NCBI RefSeq assembly: GCF_006345805.1
Contig: NC_042997.1
Span: forward strand, 69,502,001-69,566,000
From: Octopus sinensis
Taxonomy: Eukaryota
Length of the DNA stretch: 64,000 nt
Direction of reading: 5' to 3'
Part shown: piece after piece, positions 7,823 through 56,948 of the stretch
Position numbering within the stretch: the first letter of the stretch is position 1
How the letters are laid out: each line of letters starts with the position of its first letter
The notes under the pieces: generated by a model
What the model saw: the letters and a program-made list of their open reading frames with translations, nothing else
The model's database searches: none
Told to the model about the DNA's origin: nothing
Made by a program: the position numbers and the translations under genes

Positions 7823-8180
7823 TCTACTTGTTTTAGTCATATGACTGCAGCCATGCCGGCGCACCGCTTTGAACGGTTTTTACCGGACAAATCCACCCCA
7901 GGACATTTTTGTAAGCCTAGCACTTATTCAATTGGTCTCTTTTGCTGAATCGCTCAGCTACGGGGACTTGAACACACCAACACCGGCTATCAAGAGCTGA
8001 TGGGCGGGAAAAACGCACACAAATATACGACGGGCTTCTTTCAGTTTCCGTCTACCAAATCCACTCACAAGGGTTTGGTCGGCCCGAGGCTATAGTAGAA
8101 GACACTTTCCCAAGGTGCCACGCAGTGGGACTGAACCTGGTACTATGTGGTCGGGAAGCAAGCTTCTTACTACATAGCAC
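7820..8180 (-). mobile_element. tRNA-derived SINE (family 2)
   Basis: Collinear similarity to 2520-2912 (GGGCTTCTTTCAGTTTCCG, CAGTGGGACTGAACC, AAGCTTCTTACTAC). Confidence 0.85.
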
Positions 8181-20782: not shown

Positions 20783-21260
20783 CTAGCATTAAAGACCCGT
20801 CGTTGCCGAGTCATAGTGCTAGTGCATGTATATATGTGTATAATATGTGTACATATTACATGTACATCTATATATATACATCTACACATAAAATTCAAAT
20901 ATAAAAGTATATCTTTAAATATCGCTAGTGATACACAATACTCAAAATATATAACAGACTGGAATTGTTAGCCCGTCTCTTGTAATTCGATCAATTGTAT
21001 CTTGTTCTCCCTCTTGTATAGAAGTGTGGCTACAATCCAGCCTACCTCTACTTTCATTTAAAATTTTTTTCCGGGACGTCCTTCGTCCCAGATATAATGT
21101 AAAAATAAAAATTTCCACTTTGCAAGTTCGAGTCGAGTACTCCCTTGCACGCTCCGTTGACTCGAACCTGCTTCTGTTGTGGCGAATTGCCGCCTCTGAT
21201 TAGATAACTTTTCATAGTCGCACCAAAGACAACAATTTTCGAAGGTGCTTTCCTCCATGT
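20783..21260 (-). mobile_element. Non-autonomous Helitron, 3' portion (host of the retroelement array)
   Basis: Minus strand ends ...GACTCG-GCAACGA-CGGGTC (hairpin, 20794-20812) TTTAATG-CTAG|T at 20783, next to TA-rich satellite. The internal extent up to 21260 is inferred. Confidence 0.75.
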
Positions 21261-21499
21261 GATTTTATTATTACCACAAGGGGCGAACATAGATGGGACA
21301 ATACAATCTGGGTCAGACAAACGAATGGGTTTTTACACTAAATCGAATTTTAAAATTTTCATGAATTACAATAAATGGACAGAAATCGAATGATGGGACA
21401 GACCGGAAGACGTTACGGGTGGAGTGGGTGCGGGTTTAGCTCGGACCCCCACGAGCCCCGCCTCCCACTGATACTTTTGGTTGCACTTGGTATTACATT

Positions 21500-24400
21500 T
21501 ATGTGTATCTTTCACTCGCAACTTTCGTGCTACATCCTTCCATCGTTCTTCATACACTCTCCTAGTCAGGCATATTCTTTCCAGCCCTATTTTTTCAGGT
21601 GAAAGATGAAATAGTTCATCAAACCAGGGCCGGAGATGAACTTGCCTGACTGTAAACCTTTCATTCTCGTCTTCCATATCACCTCTTTCGCAATTGCTAC
21701 TACAACGAGAAAACGAAACTTACCTCATTCACGGGAAATCCGGTGGGTCAATTTTTGTAATCGACTCAGTCGACAGCTGTACTCTTCGTGTACCTGACAA
21801 CAGGTGTTCGGCATAAAACCCCACCTCAGACACGTCGGACAATGAACAATCGCGGTGCGGGACGGTTTCCCTATCCCGCCCGCATCTTGGACATATCGGA
21901 CTGTCTTGGCCACCGTGCCTTGCGAGTTTATCCCGAACAGGTAGAGCTCCTTCTGTAGCATTGCCATGCCAGGACTTTGTGGAAGTTGTCCAGTGTCCTC
22001 GCTCGAACGTACGTCGGAACAGACTGGCCAGCTGATTATCGTCGAGACCTAGGTTTCCCCCAAGGTATCTTCACATTCCGCCTCTACCAACCCTCTATAG
22101 AGGAATGTGGTGGAACCCCCACCGCAGGCGTTGCCCGAGCGACGGAATAGCAGGAGAGCCTTGCGACACTCCGTGTACCAAGTACCAAGTTTCGATCTAC
22201 GATTCAGCCAGGTTCCATCCACCGAAACTAGTGAACTTGGGAAACATCAGGTTTTGCTAGCGAAGACCACACCCGTTCACCATCCAGGTAGAGCCACAGA
22301 TGTCTTAACCTCAGCGCATGTCTGCGCATCATCAGCCAAGGCATCCCTAGCCCACCCTTAAACGGTTGTTGACAGCAAGTAGAGCGTTTCACAAGTGGTT
22401 TCCCGCCCTTCCACAAGAAGTAGAAGAGCTGTCTTTCCAACTTGATCAACCACGAATCAGGGCAAGGAACGACGGAAAGCGGTAGGTGATAACCGATGCG
22501 ATAAACACATGGCCACCTCCGCCCTCCCTTTCAGGGATAGCCACCGCCAAGACCAGGTCTTGGCTACTGCAGCCACCTTGCTCGTTACCTCGCCCCAATT
22601 CTTCTCTATTTGGAGGTCTGGACCGAACCAGACCCCTAGCAGTTTAATCGGACCTCCGTCCAACGTCCACGACGCTGTCAGGAGGCATCGACTTGCCTCT
22701 CCAGGTGCCGAGTTGCAAGCCGACTGACTTTTCGCGATTAACTTTTGCTCCTGTCACCGTCTCGTAAACCTCTATGGCCTTGCCTACTTTACATAGGTGG
22801 TCCATTTCGGTTACGATGATGGTGATGTCATCCGCGTACGCTGACACTGATTTTCCATTACCTGGCTGTCTCGGGATGCCGCTCAGTTTTCGCAGTAATG
22901 GCTCAAGAGCCATCACGTACAAAAGCGGGGAGAGCGGACACCCTTGACGAACCGAGCGTTTGATTTTGAACGGCTTCGACAAGAAGCCGTTCACCGAACT
23001 ACCGAGTCGATGTTATCATAAATTTGGATAATCCACCTGAGGAAGCCAGGCTCAGCCCGAACTGTGCCAGGGCAGACACAAGGTAACGATGGTCGACCCT
23101 ATCAAAAGCTTTAGATTGGTCTAAATGGAGCACAGTGCCCACCCCTTGCCAGAATCACTATTAACCCCTCTATAGTGTACCGCATTAGATGGAGATTATC
23201 CTGAATGGATCTGCCCGGAACGGCACATGTCTGTGCCTCTCCGATCAGACCATCCGCGACACGCGCCAATCTTTTCGATAACACTTTGGCCAAAATCTTC
23301 AACTCTGTGTTTAGCAGAGTGATGGGCCTGAAATTATCAATGCACTCCCCCTTGCTCGGGTCCTTTCTGACGAGAGTCACTACCCCGGCGCACAGATCTG
23401 GGTATAAGCCCGTTCTGCTGCCAGTTCGCATAGACCTCCGCCAGTAGGTGCCCGAACAAGTCTGGCATACTCTTATATAACTCATAGGGTAGACCATCCA
23501 AACCCGGCGCCTTGCCCGCGCCGCAGTCCGTCATTGCCTCAACCACCCTCAGGCAGGCTTCACAGCCCTCCGCATCTCGCCCCGATGAGCGCGGCAGCCC
23601 GTCGAGTAGGTCCGTAAAGGCCCTCCTCCCTATCCAGTCCGCCGCACTCACCGAAAAGCTGAGCGAAGTGCTCCTGAAAGGCCTCACACATCTCCTCGGG
23701 TTCGTTTATCAACTCACCTTGTTGGTTCGTCAAAGATCGAATCGTGGCATCGTTACCATGCCGAGCTTCCACCACTCCCCATCTCACGGCGTTGATTCAT
23801 CACATCCCATGGCCAATGCCTGAGCCCCAATGTGTGTTGGCCTCGAGGTGCTGGTTAACACCAGTCTCTTGGACGCCACCTGAGCCACAGAGCCAGTTTT
23901 CCATGGCTTCCTCTAATTCCTTAACTAGAGTAGTTTCCCTTCTAGCCTCTCTAGCCACTACTCCTATGCTATATCTAATAGACTCAAACTTGATGGCTCG
24001 TTGAGGGCGTACCACCATTTGTTATTAATGATGGTACCAGATAGTGCCCTCTGAATTATATTCCTAATCCGGTCTTTGTACTCCTTAATCGCCAAAAGGG
24101 ACGTATTAAGTTCCCAGTAACCGGATCCTCTATTTTAACCTTATCTATGTCAAGCTACAAGTGACCATTTTATGATCACTGTACTGATCGGGTTAAAACT
24201 GTGGACACTTAGCTATTTTACTGTCTACTTTCTAATTAGTATTCTATCTAAATATGACCTGGAAGATCCGTCGCTGTTTGACCATGTCCACAATGGAGCG
24301 TTCGGAAATTCCAGCCTATAAGGATCTGCTAGCTCAAAGCGGCTTAGCAGTTCCATGAAGCCACTGTTGCCTTTTCTATCTGGACACGAGCCAACATAAT

Positions 24401-24852
24401 CTACATCCGCTTTGCAAATTGTGTTAAAGTCTCCTAGCACCACTAATGAATGCGAAGTACCAAGTACAAGAAGTTTTCTAGTTCACGAAAATAATCACTT
24501 TGCCCTGTATGGTTGGGTGCGTAAATTGCAACCAGTCTGATAACTTTACGTTACTGAACGTCAAATCCATGACGACCAGCCTACCTTCTGGATCTGCAAA
24601 AATTAACTTTTTCTCAGAAACCCGGTTTCTTTTAATAGGACCAACACCCCACTCCCGCCTGTAGGACTGCCAGGAGAGAAAAAACTCTCGTAGCCGTCAA
24701 ACAGCGGGAGTAGACCTCTTGGCCCTCTAACCGGGTTTCTGTAGCAACAATAACATCTAAATTACGCGACTGATATCATGCAGGAAGCGACCTTGCTTCC
24801 AGTCTGCTCCCAGGCCGCGCACATTCAAACAACCAACATAAATGTAATCCAT
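21500..24852 (-). pseudogene. LINE ORF2: APE endonuclease, reverse transcriptase, C-terminal Cys/His motif
   Basis: Starts MDYIYVGCLNVRGL at 24852; APE motifs VLGDFN, SYLDRIL, YSDHKMV; RT motifs KAPGLDGLPYE, NFRPITLLNTELKILAK, SVRQGCPLSPLLY, YADD, IKLLGVWF, GGLGMP. Split over many frames by small indels. Confidence 0.9.
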
Positions 24853-24865
24853 TACTTACCTTATA

Positions 24866-26230
24866 TCAGTGGTTCGGTTTTTCTTGTTCTTCTAAACTCT
24901 TTTCTGGGCCTCGTGGGGGAGTCTGACGTAGGCCCTCGAATATATGTGGAGATGTCACATCATCCAATCTAAGTGGGCCTACGTCATGGAAGAATTCTGA
25001 CTTTATCCGCCCGTAATCCTTCCGGCCTATTCTGTAAATTACAAAGTCGTTTTTTTTTACTCTCACGCTTCCTTGCCACTTGGCCATGCCAACACGTTTC
25101 CGAGTCTGCTATTTGCTGCCTTTACGGCCATATATGAGTTCATTGACTCTTTTTTGTTTTTTAAAATTACTCTGGGAGGGGTGGTTTCCGTTTTTCTTTT
25201 TTTTTTCCGATAATTTTTTCCCACCCCTCCTCATTTATCTTTTCCTCGCTCTTTTTTTTTCCGCCGCTGGTTCTGCTGTCACCGTCACCTCCACACCTTC
25301 AGTCTTCCCTCTGGGCCGTCTGACGCTGCTTCTGTGACACATGTCTTTTTTCTTTTTGGCTTAGGTGCTTCCGGCGTTTGGGTGGGGTTGGCATTCCGCC
25401 CTACATGCCCCTTCTTGCCGCAGCCGAAGCACCTCGGTTTCCTGCCCTCCACGAACACTGTTATTTTCTCGTCTTCACTAATCTTTACCGTTTCTGGATT
25501 TCTTCCAGTGTTTGCACCTCCGCCTGAATGGCTATCACTATTTTTGCCTTTCCAAAAATCCTCTTCCTCACTGTGGCCTGGAGGATGTTTATTTTTTCTC
25601 CAGACCTACCATCACTGCTGCCACCAGACATTCAGCATCAGCCTCTGGCGGTATGTTGTTCATGAAATTTTGACGTCCTTTTCCTTTATACAATGGTAGT
25701 AAGACAATGTTTCCGCTTTGATCGGCTCCATCGATAGTTTCTTCGCTATATCCTCCGTAGTAAAACGCACCTCCACTGTGCCGTATCTTTTTCCTCTGTT
25801 TATATACGTTATTTTGTCCATAAACGGTTTTAGACAAGACTCTATTTTTTTTCTTCGATTTTTTGGATCATTTTTTTCGTGTGTCGTAAGTTTTATATAT
25901 TATTCTTTTTTTCTCTATATCGTCATGTATTTGTATGTTGTGGCCACAGTCACTTCTGTGCCTTCTTTTTTTTACGCAGTCTGCAAATTTTTTTAAATTG
26001 TCTATATTATTTTTCTTTTTTCCTAGCCACTTCAGCGAATTTTTTTGCTGGAGTTGATGCTGGTACTGGTTTTTCCATTTTCTTGGGCGACGCCGCCTCT
26101 TTTTTCTTCGGCGACAGCGCCTCTTTTTTTCTTGGCGACAACGCCTCTTTTTTACTTGGCGACAACGCCGGGTATTCATCCTCGCTCGTCACGGGCGAAG
26201 AGAATAAGTGATGGGGGACTCCATCATGAA
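24866..26230 (-). pseudogene. LINE ORF1 (gag-like, CCHC zinc knuckle, N-terminal SPKK-type repeats)
   Basis: EALSP(S/R/K)KK repeats; RGKRYGTVEVRF at ~25770-25800; VFVEGRKPRCFGCGKKGH at ~25400-25460; homologous to the array-unit ORF; frameshifted; start approximate. Confidence 0.8.
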
Positions 26231-26452
26231 CAAATGGCTTATAACAAGCCTTTGGTAAATCCAAATTAATTGTAGTTTTCCCCCACTGAGGGGAACACCA
26301 ACGCGAAGTCTTCGCGCGAAGGCTGGCTTCGTCCGTTAGACAACAATAGACAAAACAGGTAGATCAACAGTATATAATAACAGAGATAATAGTACGAGAG
26401 CAAAATTATATATCAACTTACTAATAACGCAAAAAATTGATTTCCGCCGTGT

Positions 26453-29400
26453 TGTTTTTTATTCCCACTAGGGGCTACATAGATGGGACAATACAATCGG
26501 GAAAATGAATAATGAATTATGAAGTTTGTACAATGTGGTGCAATGCCCACTCGATCCCCGTAATCGAGCGGTTACATTTCGTCATTTATTTTTATTCGTC
26601 AACAATTTTTCAAATAAAACATTTTATACATTTTCAACATACATTTCAAAAAGTTTTACAAAGTTCAACATTTCTTTTTTTTTTTTTTCCGAATTTAAAG
26701 TTCTTTTATCATTTCCAAATTAAAGTTTTCACAATACCTTTTCTTTTATATATACTCCATTATGTCTACCAAATCTGAGTAAATTTCCATCGTTCGAGGC
26801 ACCTTGGAAGTCGGCATTTCATATGTTTTAACACGTTCTCGCCAGCTGCCTCGATGAACGCCTCGGCGTCGTTCTCGTGGACGAGTGCACCTGTTTCTTT
26901 CCATTCGGTGCCCATCCTGACCCACGTATATCCGTTTGTTTCGCTTATTAAATTTCCATCTCCTGACAGTGCTTTGATGGATCAACGTTCCATAGTATTT
27001 GAATTTTCTATTCGTACCTGCGTTTTCTCTAGTTTTTCTCTTAGGACTTACTTCCTCTTTTTCTCCTCCCTCGGTTTCTCTCTTTCTCTCTTTTTGCTTT
27101 CTCTTCTTTCTTTTCTTCTCTTGTCTTTTTGGCTCTTTGTCTGCCGTCTCTCTACCCTGTGCCTTAAGTTCCTTTCATGTTGTTTCTTTTCCTTTTTGCA
27201 TACCATCTTTTCCTTTCTTTGGTTCTGTTCCTTCTCTTGTTCTTTTCCTGCTTTTTCTCTTTCCTTTAATGTACTTTCTTTTCTTTCTCTTGCTTCTGCC
27301 TTGGCTCCTTCTCCTCTACTTCTGCACCCTGTGAATTTTGCTCCTTTTCTACTATCTTCTTCCCTTTGTGTTTCATTTTCCTTCAGTGCGCTGTTACTTC
27401 CCTTCTCTTGTTGTTTCTCCGTTATTTCCTTTTCCTTGTTTTCGCTGTTCTTTCCTTCGTGTTCGTTTTCCTTCTCTCCACTTTGTGTCTTTTTGCTCCG
27501 CTGTGAATTCATACAGCGGACATTCCTTTTTTATGTGCCCTCTTGAACCGCACAGGTAGCAATTCGGTTTTCTGCCTTCCACTATTACACTAATTGTTTG
27601 TTTTCTATTTCTATTTGGAAGGGAAATCTTTCGATGTCTTCAATTGTGGCCATCAGCCACAACTCGACTCCGAATCCCTTCCAATTTACAACGTTCGTCT
27701 CCTAATTGACCCTATTTCTACTTCCTCTTTTGCTGCCCCAATAATGGCTGTTACCAGCATTTCTGTTTTAATATTGGGGGCACCTTTGGGACTCTTACCC
27801 GTACCCCTCGTCTTCCTTTATACGTCGGCCACATGGTGAAATTTTCCGCTTTCAGGACAGTGGAAGCCAATGAGGCCGCCACTTCCTTTGTTGCGCATCT
27901 CACCTCCACCGTACCATATTTCTTCCTCTGTCTACAAAAGTCGCTTTTTTCATGATTCCCCAGACATTTCTCTATTCTTCAATCGTCACTCTCACCAGTT
28001 TTCTCGTGTTTCTATCTTGCGTTCTATACGTTATCGTCTTGTTATTTTTTCTTCTATTGTTTCCACAGGCGGGACCAGCTTCACGCTGTCACCCTCCCTT
28101 TTGACGAACTTCTCGTATTCCTTCAATTGTTCTTTTCTAAAGAACACTTCTTTTATCTAAGTGACTCGTCACTTTTTGTTGTGGCGACCCCCGCGTAAGT
28201 CTCCATGACTTGAGGGTCGACACACCTTCTATAAAAGGTTCAAACACGCAGTGGCAAACGCCTCGCGCGATTCAATTTTTGACAATTTTTTTAACAGTTT
28301 TTTCCAAAGTTTCACATGCAAAAAAATAACTCACAACACATTGTGTAAATTTCCGCCGTGGTTGTTTTATTATTACCCCTAGGGGCTACATAGATGGGAC
28401 AATACAATCGGGAAAATGAATAATGAATTATGAAGTTTGTACAATGTGGTTGCAATGCCCACTCGATCCCCGTAACGAGCGGTTACATTTCGTCATTTAT
28501 TTTTATTCGTCAACAATATTTTCAAATAAAACATTTTATACATTTTCAACATACATTTCAAAAAGTTTACAAAGTTCAACATTTCTTTTTTTTTTTTTTT
28601 TTTTTTTTTTCCGAATTTAAAGTTCTTTTTTCATTTCCAAATTAAAGTTTTCACAATACCTTTTCTTTTATATATACTCCATTATGTCTACCAAATCTGA
28701 GTAAATTTCCATCGTTCGAGGCCACCTTGGAAGTCGGCATTTCATATGTTTTAACACGTTTCGCCAGCTGCCTCGATGAACGCCTCGGCGTCGTTCTCGT
28801 GGACGAGTGCACCTGTTTCTTTCCATTCGGTGCCCATCCTGACCCACGTATATCCGTTTGTTTCGCTTATTAAATTTTCCATCTCCTCACAGTGCTTGTG
28901 ATGGATCAACGTTCCATAGTATTTGAATTTTTATTCGTACCTGCGTTTTCTCTAGTTTTTCTCTTAGGACTTACTTCCTCTTTTTTCTCCTCCCTCGGTC
29001 TCTCTTTCTCTCTTTTTGCTTTCTCTTCTTTCTTTTCCTTTCTTGTCTTTTTGCTCTTTGTCTGCCGTCTCTCTACCTGTGCCTTAAGTTCCTTTCCTGT
29101 TGTTTCTTTTCCTTTTTGCATACCATCTTTTCCTTTCTCTTGGTTCTGTTCCTTCTCTTGTTCTTTTCCTGCTTTTTCTCTTTCCTTTAATGTACTTTCC
29201 TTTTCTTTCTCTTGCTTCTGCCTTGGCTCCTTCTCCTCTACTTCTGCACCCTGTGAATTTTGCTCCTTTTCTACTATCTTCTCCCTTTGTTTTCATTTTC
29301 CTTCAGTGCGCTGTTACTTCCCTTCTCTTGTTGTTTCTCCGTTATTTCCTTTTCCTTGTTTTCGCTGTTCTTTCCTTCGTGTTCGTTTTCCTTCTCTCCA

Positions 29401-32400
29401 CTTTGTGTCTCTTTTTGCTCCGCTGTGAATTCATACAGCGGACATTCCTTTTTTATGTGCCTCTTGAACCGCACAGGTAGCAATTCGGTTTTCTGCCTTC
29501 ACTATTACACTAATTGTTTTCGTTTTCTATTTCTATTTGGAAGGGAAATCTTTCGATGTCTTCAATTGTGGCCATCAGCACACAACTCGACTCCGAATCC
29601 CTTCCAATTTACAACGTTCGTCCTCTCCTGCTGACCCTATTTCTACTTCCTCTTTTGCTGCCCCAATAATGGCTGTTACCAGCATTTCTGTTTTAATATT
29701 TGGGGGCACCTTTGGACTCTTACCCGTACCCCCGTCTTCCTTTATACGTCGGCCACATGGTGAAATTTTCCGCTTTCAGGACAGTGGAAGCCAATGAGGC
29801 CGCCACTTCCTTTGTTGCGCATCTCACCTCCACCGTACCATATTTCTTTCCTCTGTCTACAAAGTCGCTTTTTTCATGATGTCCCCCAGACATTCTCTAT
29901 TTCTTCAATCGTCACTCTCACCAGTTTTCTCGTGTTTCTGTTTATCTTGCGTTCTACGTTATCGTCTTGTTATTTTTTCTTCTTGTTTCCACAGGCGGGA
30001 CCAGCTTCACGCTGTCACCCTCCTTTTGACGAACTTCTCGTATTCCTTCAATTGTTCTTTTAAAAACACTTCTTTTATTCTAAGTGACTCGTCATTTTGT
30101 TGTGGCGACCCCCGCGTAAGTCTCCATGACTTGAGGGTCGACACACCTTCTATAAAAGGTTCAAACACGCAGTGGCAAACGCCTCGCGCGATTCAATTTT
30201 TGACAATTTTTTTAACAGTTTTTTTCCAAAGTTTCACATGCAAAAAAATAACTCACAACACACTTGTGTAAATTTCCGCCGTGGTGTTTTATTATTACCC
30301 ACTAGGGGCTACATAGATGGGACAATACAATCGGGAATGAATAATGAATTATGAAGTTTGTACAATGTGGTGCAATGCCCACTCGATCCCCGAAATCGAG
30401 CGGTTCATTTCGTCATTTATTTTTATTCGTCAACAATATTTTCAAATAAAAACATTTTATAACATTTTCAACATACATTTCAAAAAGTTTTACAAAGTTC
30501 AACATTTCTTTTTTTTTTTTCCGAATTTAAAGTTCTTTTATCATTTCCAAATTAAAGTTTTCACAATACCTTTTCTTTTATATATACTCCATTATGTCTA
30601 CCAAATCTGAGTAAACTTCCATCGTTCGAGGCCACCTTGGAAGGCGGCATTTCATATGTTTTAACCACTTCTCGCCAGCTGCCTCGATGAACGCCTCGGC
30701 GTCGTTCTCGTGACGAGTGCACCTGTTCTTTCCATTCGGTGCCCATCCTGACCCACGTATATCCGTTTGTTTCGCTTATTAAATCTTCCATCTCCTCACA
30801 GTGCTTGTGATGGATCAACGTACCATAGTATTTGAATTCTATTCGTACCTGCGTTTCTCTAGTTTTTCTCTTAGGACTTACTTACTTCCTCTTTTTTCTC
30901 CTCCCTCGGTTCTCTCTTTCTCTCTTTTTGCTTTCTTCTTTCTTTTCCTTCTTTGTCTTTTGCTCTTTGTCTGCCGTCTCTCTACCCTGTGCTTAAGTTC
31001 CTTTCCTGTGTTTTCTTTTCCTTTTTGCATACCATCTTTTCCTTTCTCTTGGTTCTGTTCCTTCTCTTGTTCTTTTCCGCTTTTTCTCTTTCCTTTAATG
31101 TACTTCCTTTTCTTTCTCTTGCTTCTGCCTTGGCTCCTTCTCCTCTACTTCTGCACCCTGTGAATTTTGCTCCTTTTCTACTATCTTCTCCCTTTTGTTT
31201 TCATTTTCCTTCAGTGCGCTGTTACTTCCCTTCTCTTGTTGTTTCTCCGTTATTTCCTTTTCTTGTTTTCGCTGTTCTTTCCTTCGTGTTCGTTTTCCTT
31301 CTCTCCACTTTGTGTCTCTTTTTGCTCCGCTGTGAATTCATACAGCGGACATTCCTTTTTTATGTGCCCTCTGAACCGCACAGGCACAGGGCAATTCGGT
31401 TTTCTGCCTTCCACTATTACACTAATTGTTTTTTCGTTTCTATTTCTATTTGGAGGGAAATCTTTCGATGTCTTCAATTGTGGCCATCAGCCACAACTCG
31501 ACTCCGAATCCCTTCCAATTTAAACGTTCGTCTCCTTAATTGACCCTATTTCTACTTCCTCTTTTCTGCTCCAATAATGGCTGTTACCAGCATTCTGTTT
31601 TAATATTTGGGGGTACCTTTGGGACTCTTACCCGTACCCCTCGTCTTCCTTTATACGTCGGCCACATGGTGAAATTTTCCGCTTTCAGGACAGTGGAAGC
31701 CAATGAGGCCGCCACTTCCTTTGTTGCGCATCTCACCTCACTCCCCGTACCATATTTCTTTCCTCTGTCTACAAAAGTCGCTTTTTCATGATGTCCCCAG
31801 ACATTTCTTATTTCTTCAATCGTCACTCTCACCAGTTTTCTCGTGTTTCTATCTTGCGTTCTATACGTTTCTTCGTGATGTTATTTTTCTCTTCTATTGT
31901 TTCCACAGGCGGGACCAGCTTCACGCTGTCACCCTCCCTTTTGACGAACTTCTCGTATTCCTTCAATTGTTCTTTTCTAAAGAACACTTCTCTTATTCTA
32001 AGAGACTCGTCACTTTTTGTTGTGGCGACCCCCGCGTAAGTCTCCATGACTTGAGGGTCGACACACCTTCTATAAAAGGTTCAAACACGCAGCGGCAAAC
32101 GCCTCGCGCGATTCAATTTTTGACAATTTTTTTAACAGTTTTTTTCCAAAGTTTCACATGCAAAAAATAACTCACAACACACTGGGTAAATTTCCGCCGT
32201 GGTGTTTTATTATTACCCACTAGGGGCTACATAGATGGGACAATACAATCGGGAAAATGAATAATGAATTATGAAGTTTGTACAATGTGGTGCAATGCCC
32301 ACTCGATCCCCGAAATCGAGCGGTTACATTTCGTCATTTATTTTTATTCGTCAACAATATTTTCAAATAAAACATTTTATACATTTTCAACATACATTTC

Positions 32401-35400
32401 AAAAAGTTTTACAAAGTTCAACATTTCTTTTTTTTTTTTTCCGAATTTAAAGTTCTTTTATCATTTCCAAATTAAAGTTTTCACAATACCTTTTCTTTTA
32501 TATATACTCCATTATGTCTACCAAATCTGAGTAAACTTCCATCGTTCGAGGCCACCTTGGAAGGCGGCATTTCATATGTTTTAACACGTTCTCGCCAGCT
32601 GCCTCGATGAACGCCTCGGCGTCGTTCTCGTGGACGAGTGCACCTGTTTCTTTCCATTCGGTGCCCATCCTGACCCACGTATATCCGTTTGTTTCGCTTA
32701 TTAAATCTTCCATCTCCTCACAGTGCTTGTGATGGATCAACGTACCATAGTATTTGAATTTTCTATTCGTACCTGCGTTTTCTCTAGTTTTTCTCTTAGG
32801 ACTTACTTCCTCTTTTTTCTCCTCCCTCGGTTTCTCTCTTTCTCTCTTTTTGCTTTCTCTTCTTTCTTTTTCCTTCTCTTGTCTTTTTGGCTCTTGTCTG
32901 CCGTCTCTCTACCCTGTGCCTTAAGTTCCTTTCCTGTTGTTTCTTTTCCTTTTGCATACATCTTTTTCTTTTTTCTTTTCTTTGTTTTTTTTCCTTCTCT
33001 TGTTCTTTTCCTGCTTTTCTCTTTCCTTTAATGTACTTTCCTTTTCTTTCTCTTGCTTCTGCCTTGGCTCCTTCTCCTCTACTTCTGCACCCTGTGAATT
33101 TTGCTCCTTTTCTACTATCTTCTTCCCTTGTTTTCATTTTCCTTCAGTGCGCTGTTACTTCCCTTCTCTTGTTGTTTCTCCGTTATTTCCTTTTCCTGTT
33201 TTCGCTGTTCTTTCCTTCGTGTTCGTTTTCCTTCTCTCCACTTTGTGTCTCTTCTTGCTCCACTGTGAATTCATACAGCGGACATTCCTTTTTTATGTGC
33301 CCTCTTGAACCGCACAGGTAGCAATTCGGTTTTCTGCCTTCCACTATTACACTAATTGTTTTTTCGTTTTCTATTTCTATTTGGAAGGGAAATCTTTCGA
33401 TGTCTTCAATTGTGGCCATCAGCCACAACTCGACTCCGAATCCCTTCAATTTACAACGTTCGTCTCCTTAATTGACCCTATTTCTACTTCCTCTTTTGCT
33501 GCTCCAATAATGGCTGTTACCAGCATTTCTGTTTTAATATTTGGGGGCACCTTTGGGACTCTTACCCGTACCCTCTCTCCTTTATACGTCGGCCACATGG
33601 TGAAATTTTCCGCTTTCAGGACAGTGGAAGCCAATGAGGCCGCCACTTCCTGTTGCGCATCTCACCTCCACCGTACCATATTTCTTTCCTCTGTCTACAA
33701 AAGTCGCTTTTTTCATGATGTCCCCCAGACATTTCTCTATTTCTTCAATCGTCACTCTCACCAGTTTTCTCGTGTTTCTATCTTGCGTTCTATACGTTAT
33801 CGTCTTGTTATTTTTTCTTCTATTGTTTCCACAGGCGGGACCAGCTTCACGCTGTCACCCTCCCTTTGACGAACTTCTCGCCTTCAATTGTTCTTTTCTA
33901 AAGAACACTTCTTTTATTCTAAGTGACTCGTCACTTTTTGTTGTGGCGACCCCCGCGTAAGTCTCCATGACTTGAGGGTCGACACACCTTCTATAAAAGG
34001 TTCAAACACGCAGTGGCAAACGCCTCGCGCGATTCAATTTTTGACAATTTTTTTAACAGTTTTTTTCCAAAGTTTCACATGCAAAAAAATAACTCACAAC
34101 ACACTTGTGTAAATTTCCGCCGTGGTGTTTTATTATTACCCACTAGGGGCTACATAGATGGGACAATACAATCGGGAAAATGAATAATGAATTATGAAGT
34201 TTGTACAATGTGGTGCAATGCCCACTCGATCCCCGTAATCGAGCGGTTACATTTCGTCATTTATTTTTATTCGTCAACAATATTTTCAAATAAAACATTT
34301 TATACATTTTCAACATACATTTCAAAAAGTTTTACAAAGTTCAACATTTTTTTTTTTTTTTTTTTTTTTTCCGAATTTAAAGTTCTTTTATCATTTCCAA
34401 ATTAAAGTTTTCACAATACCTTTTCTTTTATATATACTCCATTATGTCTACCAAATCTGAGTAAATTTCCATCGTTCGAGGCCACCTTGGAAGTCGGCAT
34501 TTCATATGTTTTAACACGTTGCCAGCTGCCTCGATGAACGCCTCGGCGTCGTTCTCGTGGACGAGTGCACCTGTTTCTTTCCATTCGGTGCCCATCCTGA
34601 CCCACGTATATCCGTTTGTTTCGCTTATTAAATTTTCCATCTCCTCACAGTGCTTGTGATGGATCAACGTTCCATAGTATTTGAATTTTCTATTCGTACC
34701 TGCGTTTTCTCTAGTTTTTCTCTTAGGACTTACTTCCTTTTTTCTCCTCCCTCGGTTTCTCTCTTCTCTCTTTTTGCTTTCTCTTTCTTTTTCCTTCTCT
34801 TGTCTTTTTGGCTCTTTGTCTGCCGTCTCTCTACCCTGTGCCTTAAGTTCCTTTCCTGTTGTTTCTTTTCCTTTTGCATACCATCTTTCCTTTCTCTTGG
34901 TTCTGTTCCTTCTCTTGTTCTTTTCCTGCTTTTCTCTTTCCTTTAATGTACTTTCCTTTTCTTTCTCTTGCTTCTGCCTTGGCTCCTTCTCCTCTACTTC
35001 TGCACCCTGTGAATTTTGCTCCTTTTCTACTATCTTCTTCCCTTTGTTTTCATTTTCCTTCAGTGCGCTGTTACTTCCCTTCTCTTGTGTTTCTCCGTTA
35101 TTTCCTTTTCCTTGTTTTCGCTGTTCTTTCCTTCGTGTTCGTTTTCCTTCTCTCCACTTTGTGTCTCTTTTTGCTCCGCTGTGAATTCATACAGCGGACA
35201 TTCCTTTTTATGTGCCCTCTTGAACCGCACAGGTAGCAATTCGGTTTTCTGCCTTCCACTATTACACTAATTGTTTTTTCGTTTTCTATTTCTATTTGGA
35301 AGGGAAATCTTTCGATGTCTTCAATTGTGGCCATCAGCCACAACTCGACTCCGAATCCCTTCCAATTTACAACGTTCGTCTCCTTAATTGACCCTATTTC

Positions 35401-38400
35401 TACTTCCTCTTTTGCTGCCCCAATAATGGCTGTTACCAGCATTTCTGTTTTAATATTGGGGGCACCTTTGGGACTCTTACCCGTCCCCTCGTCTTCCTTT
35501 ATACGTCGGACGCCACATGGTGAAATTTCCGCTTTCAGGACAGTGGAAGCCAATGAGGCCGCCACTTCCTTTGTTGCGCATCTCACCTCCACCGTACCAT
35601 ATTCTTTCCTCTGTCTACAAAAGTCGCTTTTTTCATGATGTCCCCCAGACATTTCTCTATTTCTTCAATCGTCACTCTCACCAGTTTTTCTCGTGTTTCT
35701 ATCTTGCGTTCTATACGTTATCGTCTTGTTATTTTTTCTTCTATTGTTTCCACAGGCGGGACCAGCTTCACGCTGTCACCCTCCCTTTTGACGAACTTCT
35801 CGTATTCCTTCAATTGTTCTTTTCTAAAGAACACTTCTTTTATTCTAAGTGACTCGTCACTTTTTGTTGTGGCGACCCCCGCGTAAGTCTCCATGACTTG
35901 AGGGTCGACACACCTTCTATAAAAGGTTCAAACACGCAGTGGCAAACGCCTCGCGCGATTCAATTTTTGACAATTTTTTTAACAGTTTTTTTCCAAAGTT
36001 TCACATGCAAAAAAATAACTCACAACACACTTGTGTAAATTTCCGCCGTGGTGTTTTATTATTACCCACTAGGGGCTACATAGATGGGACAATACAATCG
36101 GGAATGAATAATGAATTATGAAGTTTGTACAATGTGGTGCAATGCCCACTCGATCCCCGAAATCGAGCGGTTACATTTCGTCATTTATTTTTATTCGTCA
36201 ACAATATTTTCAAATAAAACATTTTATACATTTTCAACATACATTTCAAAAAGTTTTACAAAGTTCAACATTTCTTTTTTTTTTTTCCGAATTTAAAGTT
36301 CTTTTATCATTTCCAAATTAAAGTTTTCACAATACCTTTTCTTTTATATATACTCCATTATGTCTACCAAATCTGAGTAAACTTCCATCGTTCGAGGCCA
36401 CCTTGGAAGGCGGCATTTCATATGTTTTAACACGTTCTCGCCAGCTGCCTCGATGAACGCCTCGGCGTCGTTCTCGTGGACGAGTGCACCTGTTTCTTTC
36501 CATTCGGTGCCCATCCTGACCCACGTATATCCGTTTGTTTCGCTTATTAAATCTTCCATCTCCTCACAGTGCTTGTGATGGATCAACGTACCATAGTATT
36601 GAATTTTCTATTCGTACCTGCGTTTTCTCTAGTTTTTCTCTTAGGACTTACTTCCTCTTTTTCTCCTCCCTCGGTTTCTCTCTTTCTCTCTTTTTGCTTT
36701 CTTCTTTCTTTTTCCTTCTCTTGTCTTTTGGCTCTTTGTCTGCCGTCTCTCTACCCTGTGCCTTAAGTTCCTTTCCTGTTGTTTCTTTTCCTTTTTGCAT
36801 ACCATCTTTTCCTTTCTCTTGGTTCTGTTCCTTCTCTTGTTCTTTTCCTGCTTTTTCTCTTTCCTTTAATGTACTTTCCTTTTCTTTCTCTTGCTTCTGC
36901 CTTGGCTCCTTCTCCTCTACTTCTGCACCCTGTGAATTTTGCTCCTTTTCTACTATCTTCTTCCCTTTGTTTTCATTTTCCTTCAGTGCGCTGTTACTTC
37001 CCTTTCTTCTGTTGTTTCTCCGTTATTTCCTTTTCCTTGTTTTCGCTGTTCTTTCCTTCGTGTTCGTTTTCCTTCTCTCCACTTTGTGTCTCTTTTTGCT
37101 CCGCTGTGAATTCATACAGCGGACATTCCTTTTTATGTGCCCTCTTGAACCGCACAGGTAGCAATTCGGTTTTCTGCCTTCCACTATTACACTAATTGTT
37201 TTTTCGTTTTCTATTTCTATTTGGAAGGGAAATCTTTCGATGTCTTCAATTGTGGCCATCAGCCACAACTCGACTCCGAATCCCTTCCAATTTACAACGT
37301 TCGTCTCCTTAATTGACCCTATTTCTACTTCCTCTTTTCCTGCTCCAATAATGGCTGTTACCAGCATTTCTGTTTTAATATTTGGGGGTACCTTTGGGAC
37401 TCTTACCCGTACCCCTCGTCTTCCTTTATACGTCGGCCACATGGTGAAATTTTCCGCTTTCAGGACAGTGGAAGCCAATGAGGCCGCCACTTCCTTTGTT
37501 GCGCATCTCACCTCCACCGTACCATATTTCTTTCCTCTGTCTACAAAAGTCGCTTTTTTCATGATGTCCCCCAGACATTTCTCTATTTCTTCAATCGTCA
37601 CTCTCACCAGTTTTCTCGTGTTTCTATCTTGCGTTCTATACGTTATCGTGATGTTATTTTTCTCTTCTATTGTTTCCACAGGCGGGACCAGCTTCACGCT
37701 GTCACCCTCCCTTTTGACGAACTTCTCGTATTCCTTCAATTGTTCTTTTCTAAAGAACACTTCTCTTATTCTAAGAGACTCGTCACTTTTTGTTGTGGCG
37801 ACCCCCGCGTAAGTCTCCATGACTTGAGGGTCGACACACCTTCTATAAAAGGTTCAAACACGCAGCGGCAAACGCCTCGCGCGATTCAATTTTTGACAAT
37901 TTTTTTAACAGTTTTTTTCCAAAGTTTCACATGCAAAAAATAACTCACAACACACTTGGGTAAATTTCCGCCGTGGTGTTTTATTATTACCCACTAGGGG
38001 CTACATAGATGGGACAATACAATCGGGAAAATGAATAATGAATTATGAAGTTTGTACAATGTGGTGCAATGCCCACTCGATCCCCGAAATCGAGCGGTTA
38101 CATTTCGTCATTTATTTTTATTCGTCAACAATATTTTCAAATAAAACATTTTATACATTTTCAACATACATTTCAAAAAGTTTTACAAAGTTCAACATTT
38201 CTTTTTTTTTTTTTCCGAATTTAAAGTCTTTTATCATTTCCAAATTAAAGTTTTCACAATACCTTTTCTTTATATATACTCCATTATGTCTACCAAATCT
38301 GAGTAAACTTCCATCGTTCGAGGCCACCTTGGAAGGCGGCATTTCATATGTTTTAACACGTTCTCGCCAGCTGCCTCGATGAACGCCTCGGCGTCGTTCT

Positions 38401-41400
38401 CGTGGACGAGTGCACCTGTTTCTTTCATTCGGTGCCCATCCTGACCCACGTATATCCGTTTGTTTCGCTTATTAAATCTTCCATCTCCTCACAGTGCTTG
38501 TGATGGATCAACGTACCATAGTATTTGAATTTTCTATTCGTACCTGCGTTTTCTCTAGTTTTTCTCTTAGGACTTACTTCCTCTTTTTTCTCCTCCCTCG
38601 GTTTCTCTCTTTCTCTCTTTTTGCTTTCTCTTCTTTCTTTTTCCTTCTCTTGTCTTTTTGGCTCTTTGTCTGCCGTCTCTCTACCCTGTGCCTTAAGTTC
38701 CTTTCCTGTTGTTTCTTTTTTTTTGCATACCATCTTTTCCTTTCTCTTGGTTCTGTTCCTCTCTTGTTCTTTTCCTGCTTTTTCTCTTTCCTTTAATGTA
38801 CTTTCCTTTTCTTTCTCTTGCTTCTGCCTTGGCTCCTTCTCCTCTACTTCTGCACCCTGTGAATTTTGCTCCTTTTCTACTATCTTCTTCCCTTTGTTTT
38901 CATTTTCCTTCAGTGCGCTGTTACTTCCCTTCTCTTGTTGTTTCTCCGTTATTTCCTTTCCTTGTTTTCGCTGTTCTTTCCTTCGTGTTCGTTTTCCTTC
39001 TCTCCACTTTGTGTCTCTTTTTGCTCCGCTGTGAATTCATACAGCGGACATTCCTTTTTTATGTGCCCTCTTGAACCGCACAGGTAGCAATTGTTTTTTT
39101 TCTGCCTTCCACTATTACACTAATTGTTTTTTCGTTTTCTATTTCTATTTGGAAGGGAAATCTTTCGATGTCTTCAATTGTGGCCATCAGCCACAACTCG
39201 ACTCCGAATCCTTCCAATTTACAACGTTCGTCTCCTTAATTGACCCTATTTCTACTTCCTCTTTGCTGCTCCAATAATGGCTGTTACCAGCATTTCTGTG
39301 TTTTAATATTTGGGGGCACCTTTGGGACTCTTACCCGTACCCCTCGTCTTCCTTTATACGTCGGCCACATGGTGAAATTTCCGCTTTCAGGACAGTGGAA
39401 GCCAATGAGGCCGCCACTTCCTTTGTTGCGCATCTCACCTCCACCGTACCATATTTCTTTCCTCTGTCTACAAAAGTCGCTTTTTTCATGATGTCCCCCA
39501 GACATTTCTCTATTCTTCAATCGTCACTCTCACCAGTTTTCTCGTGTTTCTATCTTGCGTTCTATACGTTTCGTCTTGTTATTTTTTCTTCTATTGTTTC
39601 CACAGGCGGGACCAGCTTCACGCTGTCACCCTCCCTTTTGACGAACTTCTCGTATTCCTTCAATTGTTCTTTTCTAAAGAACACTTCTTTTATTCTAAGT
39701 GACTCGTCACTTTTTGTTGTGGCGACCCCCGCGTAAGTCTCCATGACTTGAGGGTCGACACACCTTCTATAAAAGGTTCAAACACGCAGCGGCAAACGCC
39801 TCGCGCGATTCAATTTTTGACAATTTTTTTAACAGTTTTTTTCCAAAGTTTCACATGCAAAAAATAACTCACAACACACTTGGGTAAATTTCCGCCGTGG
39901 TGTTTTATTATTACCCACTAGGGGCTACATAGATGGGACAATACAATCGGGAAAATGAATAATGAATTATGAAGTTTGTACAATGTGGTGCAATGCCCAC
40001 TCGATCCCCGAAATCGAGCGGTTACATTTCGTCATTTATTTTATCGTCAACAATATTTTCAAATAAAACATTTTATACATTTTCAACATACATTTCAAAA
40101 AGTTTTACAAAGTTCAACATTTCTTTTTTTTTTTTTCCGAATTTAAAGTTCTTTTATCATTTCCAAATTAAAGTTTTCACAATACCTTTTCTTTTATATA
40201 TACTCCATTATGTCTACCAAATCTGAGTAAACTTCCATCGTTCGAGGCCACCTTGGAAGGCGGCATTTCATATGTTTTAACGCGTCTCGCCAGCTGCCTC
40301 GATGAACGCCTCGGCGTCGTTCTCGTGGACGAGTGCACCTGTTTCTTTCCATTCGGTGCCCATCCTGACCCACGTATATCCGTTTGTTTCGCTTATTAAA
40401 TCTTCCATCTCCTCACAGTGCTTGTGATGGATCAACGTTCCATAGTATTTGAATTTTCTATTCGTACCTGCGTTTTCTCTAGTTTTTCTCTTAGGACTTA
40501 CTTCCTCTTTTTCTCCTCCCTCGGTTTCTCTCTTTCTCTCTTTTTGCTTCTCTTCTTTCTTTTCCTTCTCTTGTCTTTTTGGCTCTTGTCTGCCGTCTCT
40601 CTACCCTGTGCCTTAAGTTCCTTCCTGTTGTTTCTTTTCTTTTTGCATACCATCTTTTCCTTTCTCTTGGTTCTGTTCCTTCTCTTGTTCTTTTCCTGCT
40701 TTTTTCTTTCCTTTAATGTACTTTCCTTTTCTTTCTCTTGCTTCTGCCTTGGCTCCTTCTCCTCTACTTCTGCACCCTGTGAATTTTGCTCCTTTTCTAC
40801 TATCTTCTTCCCTTTGTTTTCATTTTCCTTCAGTGCGCTGTTACTTCCCTTCTCTTGTTGTTTCTCCGTTATTTCCTTTCCTTGTTTTCGCTGTTCTTTC
40901 CTTCGTGTTCGTTTTCCTTCTCTCCACTTTGTGTCTCTTTTTGCTCCGCTGTGAATTCATACAGCGGACATTCCTTTTTTATGTGCCCTCTTGAACCGCA
41001 CAGGTAGCAATTCGGTTTTCTGCCTTCCACTATTACACTAATTGTTTTTTCGTTTTCTATTTCTATTTGGAAGGGAAATCTTTCGATGTCTTCAATTGTG
41101 TGGCCATCAGCCACAACTCGACTCCGAATCCCTTCCAATTTACAACGTTCGTCTCCTTAATTGACCCTATTTCTACTTCCTCTTTTGCTGCTCCAATAAT
41201 GGCTGTTACCAGCATTTCTGTTTTAATATTTGGGGGTACCTTTGGGACTCTTACCCGTACCCCTCGTCTTCCTTTATACGTCGGCCACATGGTGAAATTT
41301 TCCGCTTTCAGGACAGTGGAAGCCAATGAGGCCGCCACTTCCTTTGTTGCGCATCTCACCTCCACCGTACCATATTTCTTTCCTCTGTCTACAAAAGTCG

Positions 41401-43750
41401 CTTTCTTCATGATGTCCCCCAGACATTTCTCTATTTCTTCAATCGTCACTCTCACCAGTTTTCTCGTGTTTCTATCTTGCGTTCTATACGTTATCGTGAT
41501 GTTATTTTTCTTTCTATTGTTTCCACAGGCGGGACCAGCTTCACGCTGTCACCCTCCCTTTTGACGAACTTCTCGTATTCCTTCAATTGTTCTTTTCTAA
41601 AGAACACTTCTTTTATTCTAAGTGACTCGTCACTTTTTGTTGTGGCGACCCCCGCGTAAGTCTCCATGACTTGAGGGTCGACACACCTTCTATAAAAGGT
41701 TCAAACACGCAGCGGCAAACGCCTCGCGCGATTCAATTTTTGACAATTTTTTTTTAACAGTTTTTTTCCAAAGTTTCACATGCAAAAATAACTCACAACA
41801 CACTTGGGTAAATTTCCGCCATGGTGTTTTATTATTACCCACTAGGGGCTACATAGATGGGACAATACAATCGGGAATGAATAATGAATTATGAAGTTTG
41901 TACAATGTGGTGTAATGCCCGCTCGATCCCCGAAATCGAGCGGTTACATTTCGTCAATTAATTTTGTTCGTCAACAATATTTTCAAATAAAACATTTTTT
42001 ACATTTTCAACATACATTTCAAAAAGTTTTACAAAGTTCAACATTTCCTTTTTTTTTTTTTTTTCAGAATTTAAAGTTCTTTTTATCATTTCCAAATTAA
42101 GTTTTCACAATACCTTTTCTATTTATACACTCCATTATGTCTACCAAATCTGAGTAACTTCCATCGTTCGAGGCCACCTTTTAAGTCGGCATTTCATATG
42201 TTTTAACACGTTCTCGCCAGCTGCCTCGATGAACGCCTCGGCGTCGTTCTCGTGGATGAGTGCACCTGTTTCTTCCCATTCGGTGCCCATCCTGACCCAC
42301 GTATATCCGTTTGTTGCGCTTATTAAATCTTCCATTCCTCACAGTGCTTGTGATGGATCAACGTTCCATAGTATTTGTATTTTCTATTCGTACCTACGTT
42401 TTCTCTAGTTTTTCTCTTAGGACTTACTTCCTCTTTTTTCTCCTCCCTCGGTTTCTCTCTTTCTCTCTTTTTGCTTTCTCTTCTTTCTTTTTCCTTCTCT
42501 TGTCTTTTTGGCTCTTGTTTTCTGCGTCTCTCTACCTGTGCCTTAAGTTCCTTTCCTGTTGTTTCTTTTCCTTTTTGCATACCATCTTTTCCTTTCTCTT
42601 GTTTCTGTTCCTTCTCTTGTTCTTTTCCTGCTTTTTCTCTTTCCTTTAATGTACTTTCCTTTTCTTTCTCTTGCTTCTGCCTTGGCTCCTTCTCCACTAC
42701 TTCTGCACCCTGTGAATTTTGCTCCTCTTCTACTATCTTCTTCCCTTTGTTTTCATTTTCCTTCAGTGCGCTGTTACTTCCCTTCTCTTGTTGTTTCTCC
42801 GTTATTTCCTTTTCCTTGTTTTCGCTGTTCTTTCCTTCGTGTTCGTTTCCTTCTCTCCACTTTGTGTCTCTTTTTGCTCCGCTGTGAATTCATACAGCGG
42901 ACATTCCTTTTTATGTGCCCTCTTGATCCGCACAGGTAGCAGTTCGGTTTTCTGCCTTCCACTATTACACTAATTGTCTTCTCGTTTTCTATTTCTATTT
43001 GGAAGGGAAATCTTTCGATGTCTTCCATTGTGGCCATTAGCCACAACTCGACTCCGAATCCCTTCCAATTTACAACGTTCGTCTCCTTAATTGACCCTAT
43101 TTCTACTTCCCTTTTGCTGCTCCAATAATGGCTGTTACCAGCATTTCTGTTTTAATATTTGGGGGTACCTTTGGGACTCTTACCCGTACCCCTCGTCTTC
43201 CTTTATAACGTCGGCCACATGGTGAAATTTTCCGCTTTCAGGACAGTGGAAGCCAATGAGGCCGCCACTTCCTTTGTTGCGCATCTCACCTCCACCGTAC
43301 CATATTTCTTTCCTCTGTCTACAAAGTCGCTTTTTTCATGATGTCCCCCAGACATTTCTCTATTTCTTCAATCGTCACTCTCACCAGTTTTCTCGTGTTT
43401 CTATCTTGCGTTCTATACGTTATCGTGATGTTATTTTTCTCTTCTATTGTTTCCACAGGCGGGACCAGCTTCACGCTGTCACCCTCCCTTTTGACGAACT
43501 TCTCGTATTCCTTCAATTGTTCTTTTCTAAAGAACACTTCTTTATTCTAAGAGACTCGTCACTTTTGTTGTGGCGACCCCCGCGTAAGTCTCCATGACTT
43601 GAGGGTCGACACACCTTCTATAAAAGGTTCAAACACGCAGCGGCAAACGCCTCGCGCGATTCAATTTTTGACAATTTTTTAAACAGTTTTTTTCCAAAGT
43701 TTCACATGCAAAAATAACTCACAACACACTTGGGTAAATTTCCGCCGTGG
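26453..43750 (-). mobile_element. Tandem array of 9 type-A ORF1-only non-autonomous retroelements (~1.92 kb each)
   Basis: Units end at ~28361, 30284, 32202, 34125, 36051, 37976, 39900, 41824 and 43750. Each has a 5'UTR, one ORF (METYAGV...CYLCGSRGHIKKEC...DIMEYI), a 3'UTR and the LINE-like 3' end; no EN or RT. Confidence 0.93.
36344..37820 (-). CDS. Type-A ORF1-like protein (~490 aa consensus), representative copy A6 with indels
   Basis: ORF 37023-37820 (265 aa) plus ORF 36344-36586 reconstruct an N-terminal domain, CX2CX4HX4C knuckle, K/E-rich tract and C-terminal domain. Confidence 0.7.
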
Positions 43751-52647: not shown

Positions 52648-53202
52648 GTTGAAAAATCTTCTTTTTTCTCTACATTGTATACTTTATAGACAATAGGCTT
52701 TTCTTTAATTTAATTTTTATTATCCATCTGGACTATTCCATTTCTGCCGCTAATTTTATTTTTAATTTATTCTCATTCATGTGAAACACTTATTCAAGTT
52801 CAAGTCATTGATGCAATTTTATACCAATTGCTATTTTTACTTTGTTATGTTACGATTATATTATACTTTAATTTGATTGTAATATTACTTACTACATATA
52901 TTCAATTGTTATTATTATTTTTATTGTTAAAGTGAAAGTATCTGACATAAAATAGAGAATGTTTTTGTTTCACTTTTAACACGTAATACTGAAATAGTGG
53001 AGAAGATATGATATTGCTATGGGCTCGCTCTAGGCAAGAAGTTGACACTTTTTTCCCATGAAATACATGGACCCTAAGTAAGCATGTGTAAAATTTGAAT
53101 GAAATGGTTGAGTAGTTCTCAAGTTTTAGGGAAAACACAGGAGACAAACATGACAGACAGATAGGCAGACAGACACACATTCTCAGTTTTATATATATAA
53201 AG
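52648..53202 (-). mobile_element. Non-autonomous Helitron, 5' portion
   Basis: Minus strand begins CTTTATATATATAAAACTGAGAATGTGTGTCTGTCTG (A|TC intact in the duplicate at 56778), with a (CTGT)n tract; flanked by (TA)n. Confidence 0.75.
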
Positions 53203-53868
53203 TATATATATATATATATATATAATAAAAATAAGCAGTCAATAATGTCTCCTCTTTGTTCCTTATTTTGATTATAATTATATACTCACCCCACAGATTT
53301 TTATGGATAAACACCATACAGAATTCTGGTGCATCTAAATTAAGTACCATATTCATTTGAATCTAAATTTTGTGCGAAACTTAAATAGAATATATATATC
53401 ATATATATATATATAATATATATATAGATCTATGATATTATATATAATATATCGTTGTTATTTTAAAAGTGACGAAAGCCCAAAATGTTGCTTTTCCAGA
53501 AAACGAAAAAATAGTTTTACCATTCCATAGCAAAATTTTGTGTTATTTGCATCTGAAGCAGCTGGAGATACGACAGTTTGACCAAACGAACTAACTATTA
53601 CAAGCAAAAATAAATACCGAAAAGAAATCGCGTTTGGCCCAATTTTGGACATAGAGAGAGGAGGAGAGATAGGGACAAAAGAGACACAGCAAAGTGAAGC
53701 AAGCAGACATGAATGTAGTAAGTTTGTCGTGTAGGAAACGATTCCTGTTGCACTAGCGTGCCGGAAGCAGATCAAGTATTTGTACACGGATGTATATGTA
53801 TATGTGTGTCTTATATACTAACTATATATATATATACATATGTGTTTAAACATATGTGATAGATAGAC

Positions 53869-56214: not shown

Positions 56215-56948
56215 GTGAAAATCTTCTTTTTTCTCTACATTGTATACTTTATAGACAATAGGCTTTTCTTTAATTTAATTTTTTATTATCCATCTGGACT
56301 ATTCCATTTCTGCACGCTAATTTTATTTTTAATTTATTCTCATTCATGTGAAACCACTTATTCAAGTTCAAGTCATTGATGCAATTTTATATCAATTGCT
56401 ATTTTTACTTTTGTTATGTTACGATTATATTATACTTTAATTTGATTGTAATTATTACTTACTACATATAATTCAATTGTTATTATTATTTTTATTGTTA
56501 AAGTGAAAGTATCTGACATAAAATAGAGAAATGTTTTTGTTTCACTTTTAACACGTAATACTGAAATAGTGGAGAAGATATGATATTGCTATGGGCTCGC
56601 TCTAGGCAAGAAGTTGAACTTTTTTCCCATGAAACTACATGGACCCTAAGTATGGCATGTGTAAAATTTGAATGAAATTGGTTGAGTAGTTCTCAAGTTT
56701 TAGGGAAACACACAGACAGACAAACAGACAGACAGATAGGCAGACAGACACACATTCTCAGTTTTATATATATAAAGATATATATATATATATATAATAA
56801 AAATAAGCATCAATAATGTCTCCTCTTCTTGTTCCTTATTTTGATTATAATTATAATCACCCCACAGATTTTTATGGATAACACCATACAGAATTCTGGT
56901 GCATCTAAATTAAGTACCATATTCATTTGAATCTAAATTTTTGCTGAA

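Follow-up and report, generated by a model that had tools for sequence, protein, structure and literature searches.

The last 48 nucleotides of an octopus LINE are shared with a set of ORF1-only elements and with a SINE, and comparison of these sequences indicates that the common tail is probably an RNA signal bound by the reverse transcriptase of the LINE family, which would use it to copy all three kinds of element. The analysis started from a 64,000-nucleotide stretch of Octopus sinensis DNA (NC_042997.1, positions 69,502,001 to 69,566,000), hereafter the window, and was extended to copies elsewhere in the genome. The LINE and its parts are located in the window as follows.

21261..21308, minus strand: shared 3' tail of the LINE, 48 nt, without poly(A), with a possible 4-bp hairpin and 5-nt loop
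21261..26440, minus strand: full-length L1/Tx1-group LINE, 5.2 kb, its reading frames interrupted in this assembly
21499..24852, minus strand: LINE ORF2 region with APE endonuclease, reverse transcriptase and zf-RVT, from Pfam on pieces and on a near-intact sister copy (locus L069); many frameshifts, limits approximate
24870..26227, minus strand: ORF1 region of the LINE, containing a single CCHC zinc knuckle; approximate limits

The first 14 nt of the tail are found as 16 exact copies in the window, all on the minus strand (100 shuffles give a mean of 0.5 and a maximum of 3). These represent one LINE, nine type A and six type B elements. The tail measures 48-49 nt in the three types and is 88-90% identical between them (LINE-A 44/50, LINE-B 45/50, A-B 43/49). 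Element ends in the window lie 2-4 nt past AATAAA and poly(A) is absent. The tail of the window LINE has one G fewer than that of other LINE copies, which is an error or a private change. Alignment of the last 48 nt of the LINE with those of A or B yields scores of 69-77 against a shuffled maximum of 22-23, whereas 14 of 14 blocks compared from the LINE upstream of the tail (7 versus A, 7 versus B) fall inside the shuffled range. The preliminary description, which had quoted the three tails and noted the absence of a long poly(A), is borne out on both counts, the LINE tail reading from 21308 to 21261. It had also proposed to ask whether the tail is better conserved than the rest of the UTR, and this is indeed the case. 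Its statement that the adjacent UTRs are largely unalignable holds for the LINE compared with A or B, but not for A compared with B, since these two have a further UTR block in common (score 65) and are 71% identical across about 1.3 kb.

The LINE itself is in poor condition in the window. Its longest open frame is at most 139 codons, and alignment with the near-intact sister copy requires 85 gap openings. Pieces of it match Pfam RVT_1 and Exo_endo_phos, with zf-RVT below its cut-off. Sister copies elsewhere in the genome carry open ORF2 frames of 1,132 and 1,121 codons and match RVT_1, Exo_endo_phos and zf-RVT. Many of the differences among the window units are indels (3-49 per unit), a pattern suggestive of uncorrected read errors. 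The closest solved relative of the LINE ORF2 is L1 ORF2p (E 2.5e-64), R2 being far behind (2.9e-25), and the best named match is an Argonauta protein (63%). A CCHC zinc knuckle in ORF1 is a hallmark of the Tx1 clade, and such a knuckle is present in the ORF1 frames of the LINE and of families A, B, D and E (see below). The LINE thus displays an APE endonuclease and an L1-group reverse transcriptase in ORF2, a CCHC knuckle in ORF1 and a preference for a target sequence. Because no match among the 120 listed bears the name Tx1, this label is provisional, being derived from the domain layout, the ORF1 zinc knuckle and the target preference. A search of the ESM Atlas returned only CCHC and ZCCHC3-type look-alikes (0.89-0.92), which is a lead; no literature linking ZCCHC3 with Tx1 was found. 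An older, diverged reverse transcriptase fragment akin to the LINE, with an RT-like frame and 64-71% nucleotide identity, lies on the opposite strand at window positions 60274-61424 (plus strand).

Upstream of the LINE, in the orientation of the elements, lie the type A and type B units.

26454..43750, minus strand: nine type A units in head-to-tail order, each about 1.92 kb long and encoding ORF1 only, with tails starting at 26498, 28409, 30332, 32250, 34173, 36099, 38024, 39948 and 41872
43751..52650, minus strand: five type B units in head-to-tail order, each about 1.78 kb long and encoding ORF1 only, with tails starting at 43799, 45587, 47359, 49138 and 50910
54037..56215, minus strand: sixth type B unit (tail at 54474) and the start of another, on the far side of an N gap; probably the 5' end of the array assembled a second time

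Types A and B contain a single open frame of 471-504 codons with a zf-CCHC match and without a reverse transcriptase or endonuclease match. The best named matches of the type A ORF1 are Octopus proteins (75-98%). Three further ORF1-only families, C, D and E, were detected in the genome by their ORF1 matches and have the same tail core; in D and E many tail positions differ but the core is retained. The dN/dS ratio of ORF1 is 0.11 between A and B and 0.13 between D and E, so ORF1 of these families is under purifying selection. Compared with the LINE, the ORF1 of A and B is only 33-36% identical, synonymous sites are saturated, and the LINE and A/B sequences occupy separate long branches. Besides the tail, nucleotide similarity between the LINE and A or B amounts to a weak match of 35-53 nt. 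A direct origin of A and B by internal deletion of the window LINE is therefore rejected. From these comparisons they appear to be old, selected ORF1-only families rather than fresh deletions; they may descend from an older or unseen parent LINE. For the same reason, passive inheritance cannot explain the tail: conservation is confined to it, while ORF1 has diverged to the extent just described. No bias towards A-to-G editing was seen in the window units (45 A>G versus 53 G>A in the A units, 14 versus 12 in the B units). At locus L120, the 5' end of a type D element (about 8140-8260 in element orientation) displays, by eye, an A-to-G cluster relative to other D copies that could be RNA editing written into DNA.

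Dispersed copies offer a view of how these elements insert. A 22-mer from the tail has 447 exact matches in the genome (control 0), and the loci of the first 100 listed matches were fetched, giving 49 clusters besides the window. Outside the hot spot described below, target duplications are present at 15 of 23 loci: in five of six type A copies, nine of 13 LINE copies (two of these cases being unsure, as they are set in simple or tandem repeats) and the single B+LINE pair (1/1), but in none of three lone type B copies, a count that speaks against the tail-signal reading. The clear duplications are 16-17 bp long, judged by eye, in both type A and LINE copies. Four of the five type A copies with a target duplication are truncated at the 5' end. 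Target duplications and 5' truncation are established marks of target-primed reverse transcription, which type A cannot carry out alone. Dispersed type A copies bear the marks of LINE-driven insertion.

A SINE of about 231 nt ends in the same tail core, with 35 of 42 positions as in the LINE. It is short, dispersed and highly repeated, a 35-mer from its tail having 28,438 exact copies in the genome, and long target duplications flank four of the 15 copies whose head was found. The sequence AGGTA follows 18 of 30 SINE matches (6 from one array). As for its head, A and B box-like motifs can be picked out by eye, and a relaxed ARAGORN search gives weak folds in 11 of 15 copies, only some of them in the head; with default settings ARAGORN finds no tRNA in seven SINE loci. 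A known RNA family as target or tail was also considered and set aside, as Rfam gives no match in the window or the SINE and the window contains no tRNA. The SINE was not found under a published name in the paper texts and supplements searched. None of the 20 loci fetched, out of 26 listed with a SINE-like tail ending, has the SINE as last element at the Helitron hot spot. Because the SINE thus uses a different site, its partner is probably a sister LINE within the family rather than this particular LINE subfamily. Tandem SINE arrays with a period of about 186 bp, in which an internal part of the SINE follows each copy, occur at loci L160-L165 (G000:C1:8970300-8971452), and A or LINE copies have inserted into the SINE at loci L061, L064 and L081.

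In an alignment of 21 tails, chosen by hand to span the LINE, ORF1-only and SINE families, the tail motif recurs throughout and 20 of 67 columns are invariant. For this set RNAalifold returns a 4-bp stem with a 5-nt loop (-4.25 kcal/mol), the centre of the loop taking all four bases. The preliminary description had suggested an analysis of folding and covariation across genomic copies; its outcome is divided: of 84 stem cells 82 pair, yet none of them by a compensatory change, and the folding of individual tails does not exceed that of shuffled sequences (z -1.05 to 0.75). A strong RNA structure, as opposed to this weak hairpin, is unsupported. As the stem is almost invariant and lacks compensatory change, the hairpin is a candidate structure, and the signal may be one of sequence rather than of fold.

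Could the tail instead be a signal that every transcript requires for the formation of its 3' end or for RNA stability, with an enzyme that is itself relaxed? The L1 group is described as generally relaxed (PMC3747384), and the LINE, A, B, D and E tails all have AATAAA at their extreme end. Against this, the listed junctions are free of copied poly(A), save for short A runs at a few, and some 40 nt upstream of AATAAA are conserved as well. Moreover, the SINE has the tail although many of its copies are devoid of AATAAA, and SINEs are Pol III transcripts. We regard this explanation as improbable. As it contains AATAAA, a tail bound by the reverse transcriptase could also serve in 3'-end formation.

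Another proposal is that the tail has no special function and is common to these elements through recent exchange, by template switching or gene conversion between array neighbours. The elements do lie head to tail at one site, and a few copies (loci L084, L117 and L076) carry the tail variant of another family; the mixed tails at L084 and L117 mean that exchange occurs. Yet the families retain their own diagnostic tail variants across many loci, the boundary of similarity is the same in all of them, including the dispersed SINE that was not found in these arrays, and the divergent D and E keep the core despite their many tail differences. Exchange as the general cause is thus quite improbable.

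The site at which the arrays accumulate is itself part of a repeat, represented in the window by three segments.

20783..21260, minus strand: 3' arm of the host non-autonomous Helitron, with the target sequence, an ORF1-like fragment, a terminal hairpin and CTAG
52651..53203, minus strand: 5' arm of the same Helitron, first copy
56216..56778, minus strand: 5' arm, second copy, starting with TC after A, followed by a CTGT repeat

The repeat interrupted by the array is about 1.1 kb long and has 1,641 search candidates in the genome. Thirteen empty copies that were aligned, together with the ends in the window, have TC at the 5' end, a CTGT repeat near it, and a hairpin and CTAG at the 3' end, and are placed between A and T. 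Such termini are features of non-autonomous Helitrons (PMC4344730), and on these grounds the host repeat is classed as one. Of 50 tail clusters, 22 abut a Helitron arm at one and the same site (21 of 49 taken in genome order, and the window); among the other 28, the array ends lie beyond reach in five, and one cluster occupies a different site of this repeat. That second site, at locus L094, is about 300 bp deeper in the Helitron. When Helitron copies are found by flank alone, 10 of 30 are filled, the window's own among them. Exact junction counts give 355 empty versus 104 filled (78+26), the empty and filled patterns differing slightly in length. The insertion site falls within a decayed ORF1-like fragment of the Helitron (tblastn against the 13 copies, E 1e-5 with B and 2e-8 with the LINE). 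Most type D insertions (loci L121-L140) have one common 5' junction with a short target deletion, although the Helitron arms around them resemble each other no more than empty arms do. In some Helitron copies (loci L040, L044, L046, L052, L053 and L055) a 5' module of about 150 bp is duplicated, and the copy at L053 also has a different 3' end. At loci L101 and L106 a different flank, common to the two, follows the last tail, which suggests that related LINE and B copies have another repeated target.

The frequent occupancy of this site might in principle reflect the spread of a Helitron already loaded with elements. As the main route, such hitchhiking is rejected because the inserts are younger than their Helitron hosts: the LINE inserts diverge by 0.6% and type D by 1.8%, compared with 6.8% and 5.6% for the respective downstream arms, and in every pair compared (28 LINE pairs, 136 type D pairs) the inserts are closer to each other than the downstream arms are. 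Divergence among filled Helitron arms is as large as among empty ones, and the filled arms form no cluster on the tree of either arm. The test rests on the distances, since both trees are star-like with little support. Single hitchhiking events may have taken place.

Between successive units of the array there is always a target-like spacer; one example is given here.

26441..26453, minus strand: target-like spacer

One spacer variant occupies 17 of the 18 junctions in the window, and the Helitron's own sequence is seen only at the 3'-most. A spacer change in the same direction is found at loci L089/L090, L091, L092 and L112-L114, and solo full-length copies outside the Helitron (loci L079 and L099) still start with part of the spacer. 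The spacers suggest that new elements land at the 5' junction, in which case the LINE, being most often last, would usually be the oldest. Its position relative to A and B is common but not fixed (A>LINE 13, B>LINE 4, LINE>A 2, LINE>B 3). Mixed junctions are not confined to this assembly, as a contig from a sequencing run with another organism code has a type A tail joined to a LINE 5' end. The Helitron 5' arm and its unique flank occur twice (52641-53936 and 56208-57503, 95.6% identical over 1.3 kb) on either side of a 100-N gap, so that the sixth B unit is probably an assembly repeat. Unequal crossing-over may have added to the long A and B blocks. The further idea that the tail acts as DNA, rebuilding part of the endonuclease target at the junction so as to attract or stabilize insertions while the A and B blocks expand by unequal crossing-over, would suit the frequent arrays, the homogeneous blocks (A units 94-98%, B units 98%) and the unequal recombination between target duplications proposed for bivalve SINE arrays (PMC11481361), but is very unlikely given that the spacer patterns point to reuse of the 5' junction rather than of the tail side, that solo and truncated copies outside arrays keep the tail, and that unequal crossing-over may explain block length, not the tail.

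These considerations favour the tail as a signal read by the LINE enzyme, for which the following scheme can be drawn. ORF2p from any active LINE copy would bind the tail, probably through the small hairpin and its flanks. It would then nick the target and prime reverse transcription immediately behind AATAAA, always at the same point, which would keep poly(A) from being copied. With each insertion a target-like spacer would remain at the 5' junction, there to serve as the landing site of the next element, and the arrays would grow towards their 5' side. The preliminary description had seen in the tail a cis signal for trans-mobilization by the neighbouring ORF2. The first part of this claim is well supported by the comparative data, namely the tail-limited conservation, the same duplication length, the 5' truncation, the common target and the absence of ORF2 from A and B. 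The second part is unsupported, as the frames of the window LINE are interrupted in this assembly and the open ORF2 frames lie elsewhere; A and B are close to this LINE because their target site is the same.

It is tempting to extend the scheme to a guild of three tiers organized by one tail: LINEs that make the enzyme, old ORF1-only helpers that give ORF1 protein in return for being copied, and the mass SINE. The endonuclease would once have attacked relatives at the place of the present hot spot, hence its location within a scrap of ORF1 from the family itself, and a Helitron would have captured this scrap and spread it as a decoy absorbing over 40% of insertion loci. Taken together, this chain of propositions is unlikely to hold in full and is put forward as speculation.

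Each ingredient of the octopus system has a precedent. That stringent LINE reverse transcriptases recognize their 3' tail had been taken as established; this is true of L2, R1 and R2-type LINEs but not of the L1 group, which is a stated exception, with three SINEs bearing L1 tails among more than 800 LINEs (PMC3472496), and in which tail sharing is described as rare (PMC3747384). In L2 LINEs of the zebrafish, the 3' stem-loop is bound by ORF2p (PMC4176376). Eel UnaL2 and zebrafish ZfL2 resemble the octopus elements in having the partner tail at the very 3' end, to which the octopus tail may add a candidate short stem-loop; they belong to the L2 clade, with tested binding and a clear stem-loop (PMC4176376, PMC3747384), whereas the octopus LINE is of the L1/Tx1 group and has a 4-bp hairpin without covariation. 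In the L1 clade, LINEs with a SINE-shared 3' end are recorded for a monocot L1 lineage with ZmSINE2/3, where the tail is about 45 nt and compensatory changes are reported in the stem, and for Chlamydomonas L1-1_CR with SINEX-3, which ends in poly(A) (PMC3747384, PMC3472496). Both are cases from green plants or algae; the octopus LINE is from an animal, prefers a target and lacks poly(A).

The closest parallel to the hot spot is that of the crocodilian Tx1-Mar LINEs and SINEU, described in a paper that also cites Tx1L in Tx1D (PMC4494074). There too, a common target lies inside a non-autonomous DNA transposon, and insertions are in tandem with the target duplication between them and were shown not to hitchhike. 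SINEU, in contrast, has a poly(A) end, and that paper reports no LINE with the same 3' end as SINEU-1 (PMC4494074). The octopus partners have a 48-nt tail in common and lack poly(A); furthermore, ORF1 is encoded by the passengers found at the octopus site, which belongs to a Helitron carrying an ORF1-like fragment. With regard to A and B, HAL1, HeT-A and Ag-Sponge likewise encode ORF1 only and depend on the ORF2 of a partner (PMC5786205, PMC5753468). These are from the L1, Jockey and CR1 clades. The octopus A and B are not deletion products of the adjoining LINE, and at least five such families (A-E) coexist in the octopus with a common sequence tail and a hot spot. Papers on octopus repeats (PMC13282606, PMC8967140, PMC9115989) describe L1-Tx1 as present and recently active and, in the portions available, give no partners, tails or targets. 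The combination of these ingredients in an animal L1/Tx1 element was not found in the open-access literature searched; the octopus families may already be deposited in Repbase.

An animal LINE of the L1/Tx1 group with a short sequence tail and no poly(A) would make it possible to test directly whether strict recognition is the ancestral state of the group. The 48-nt handle, together with a duplication of ~16 bp and a preferred site, makes a compact system for binding and insertion assays. For the octopus itself, this LINE would identify the family that is the likely partner of one of the most abundant repeats of its genome.
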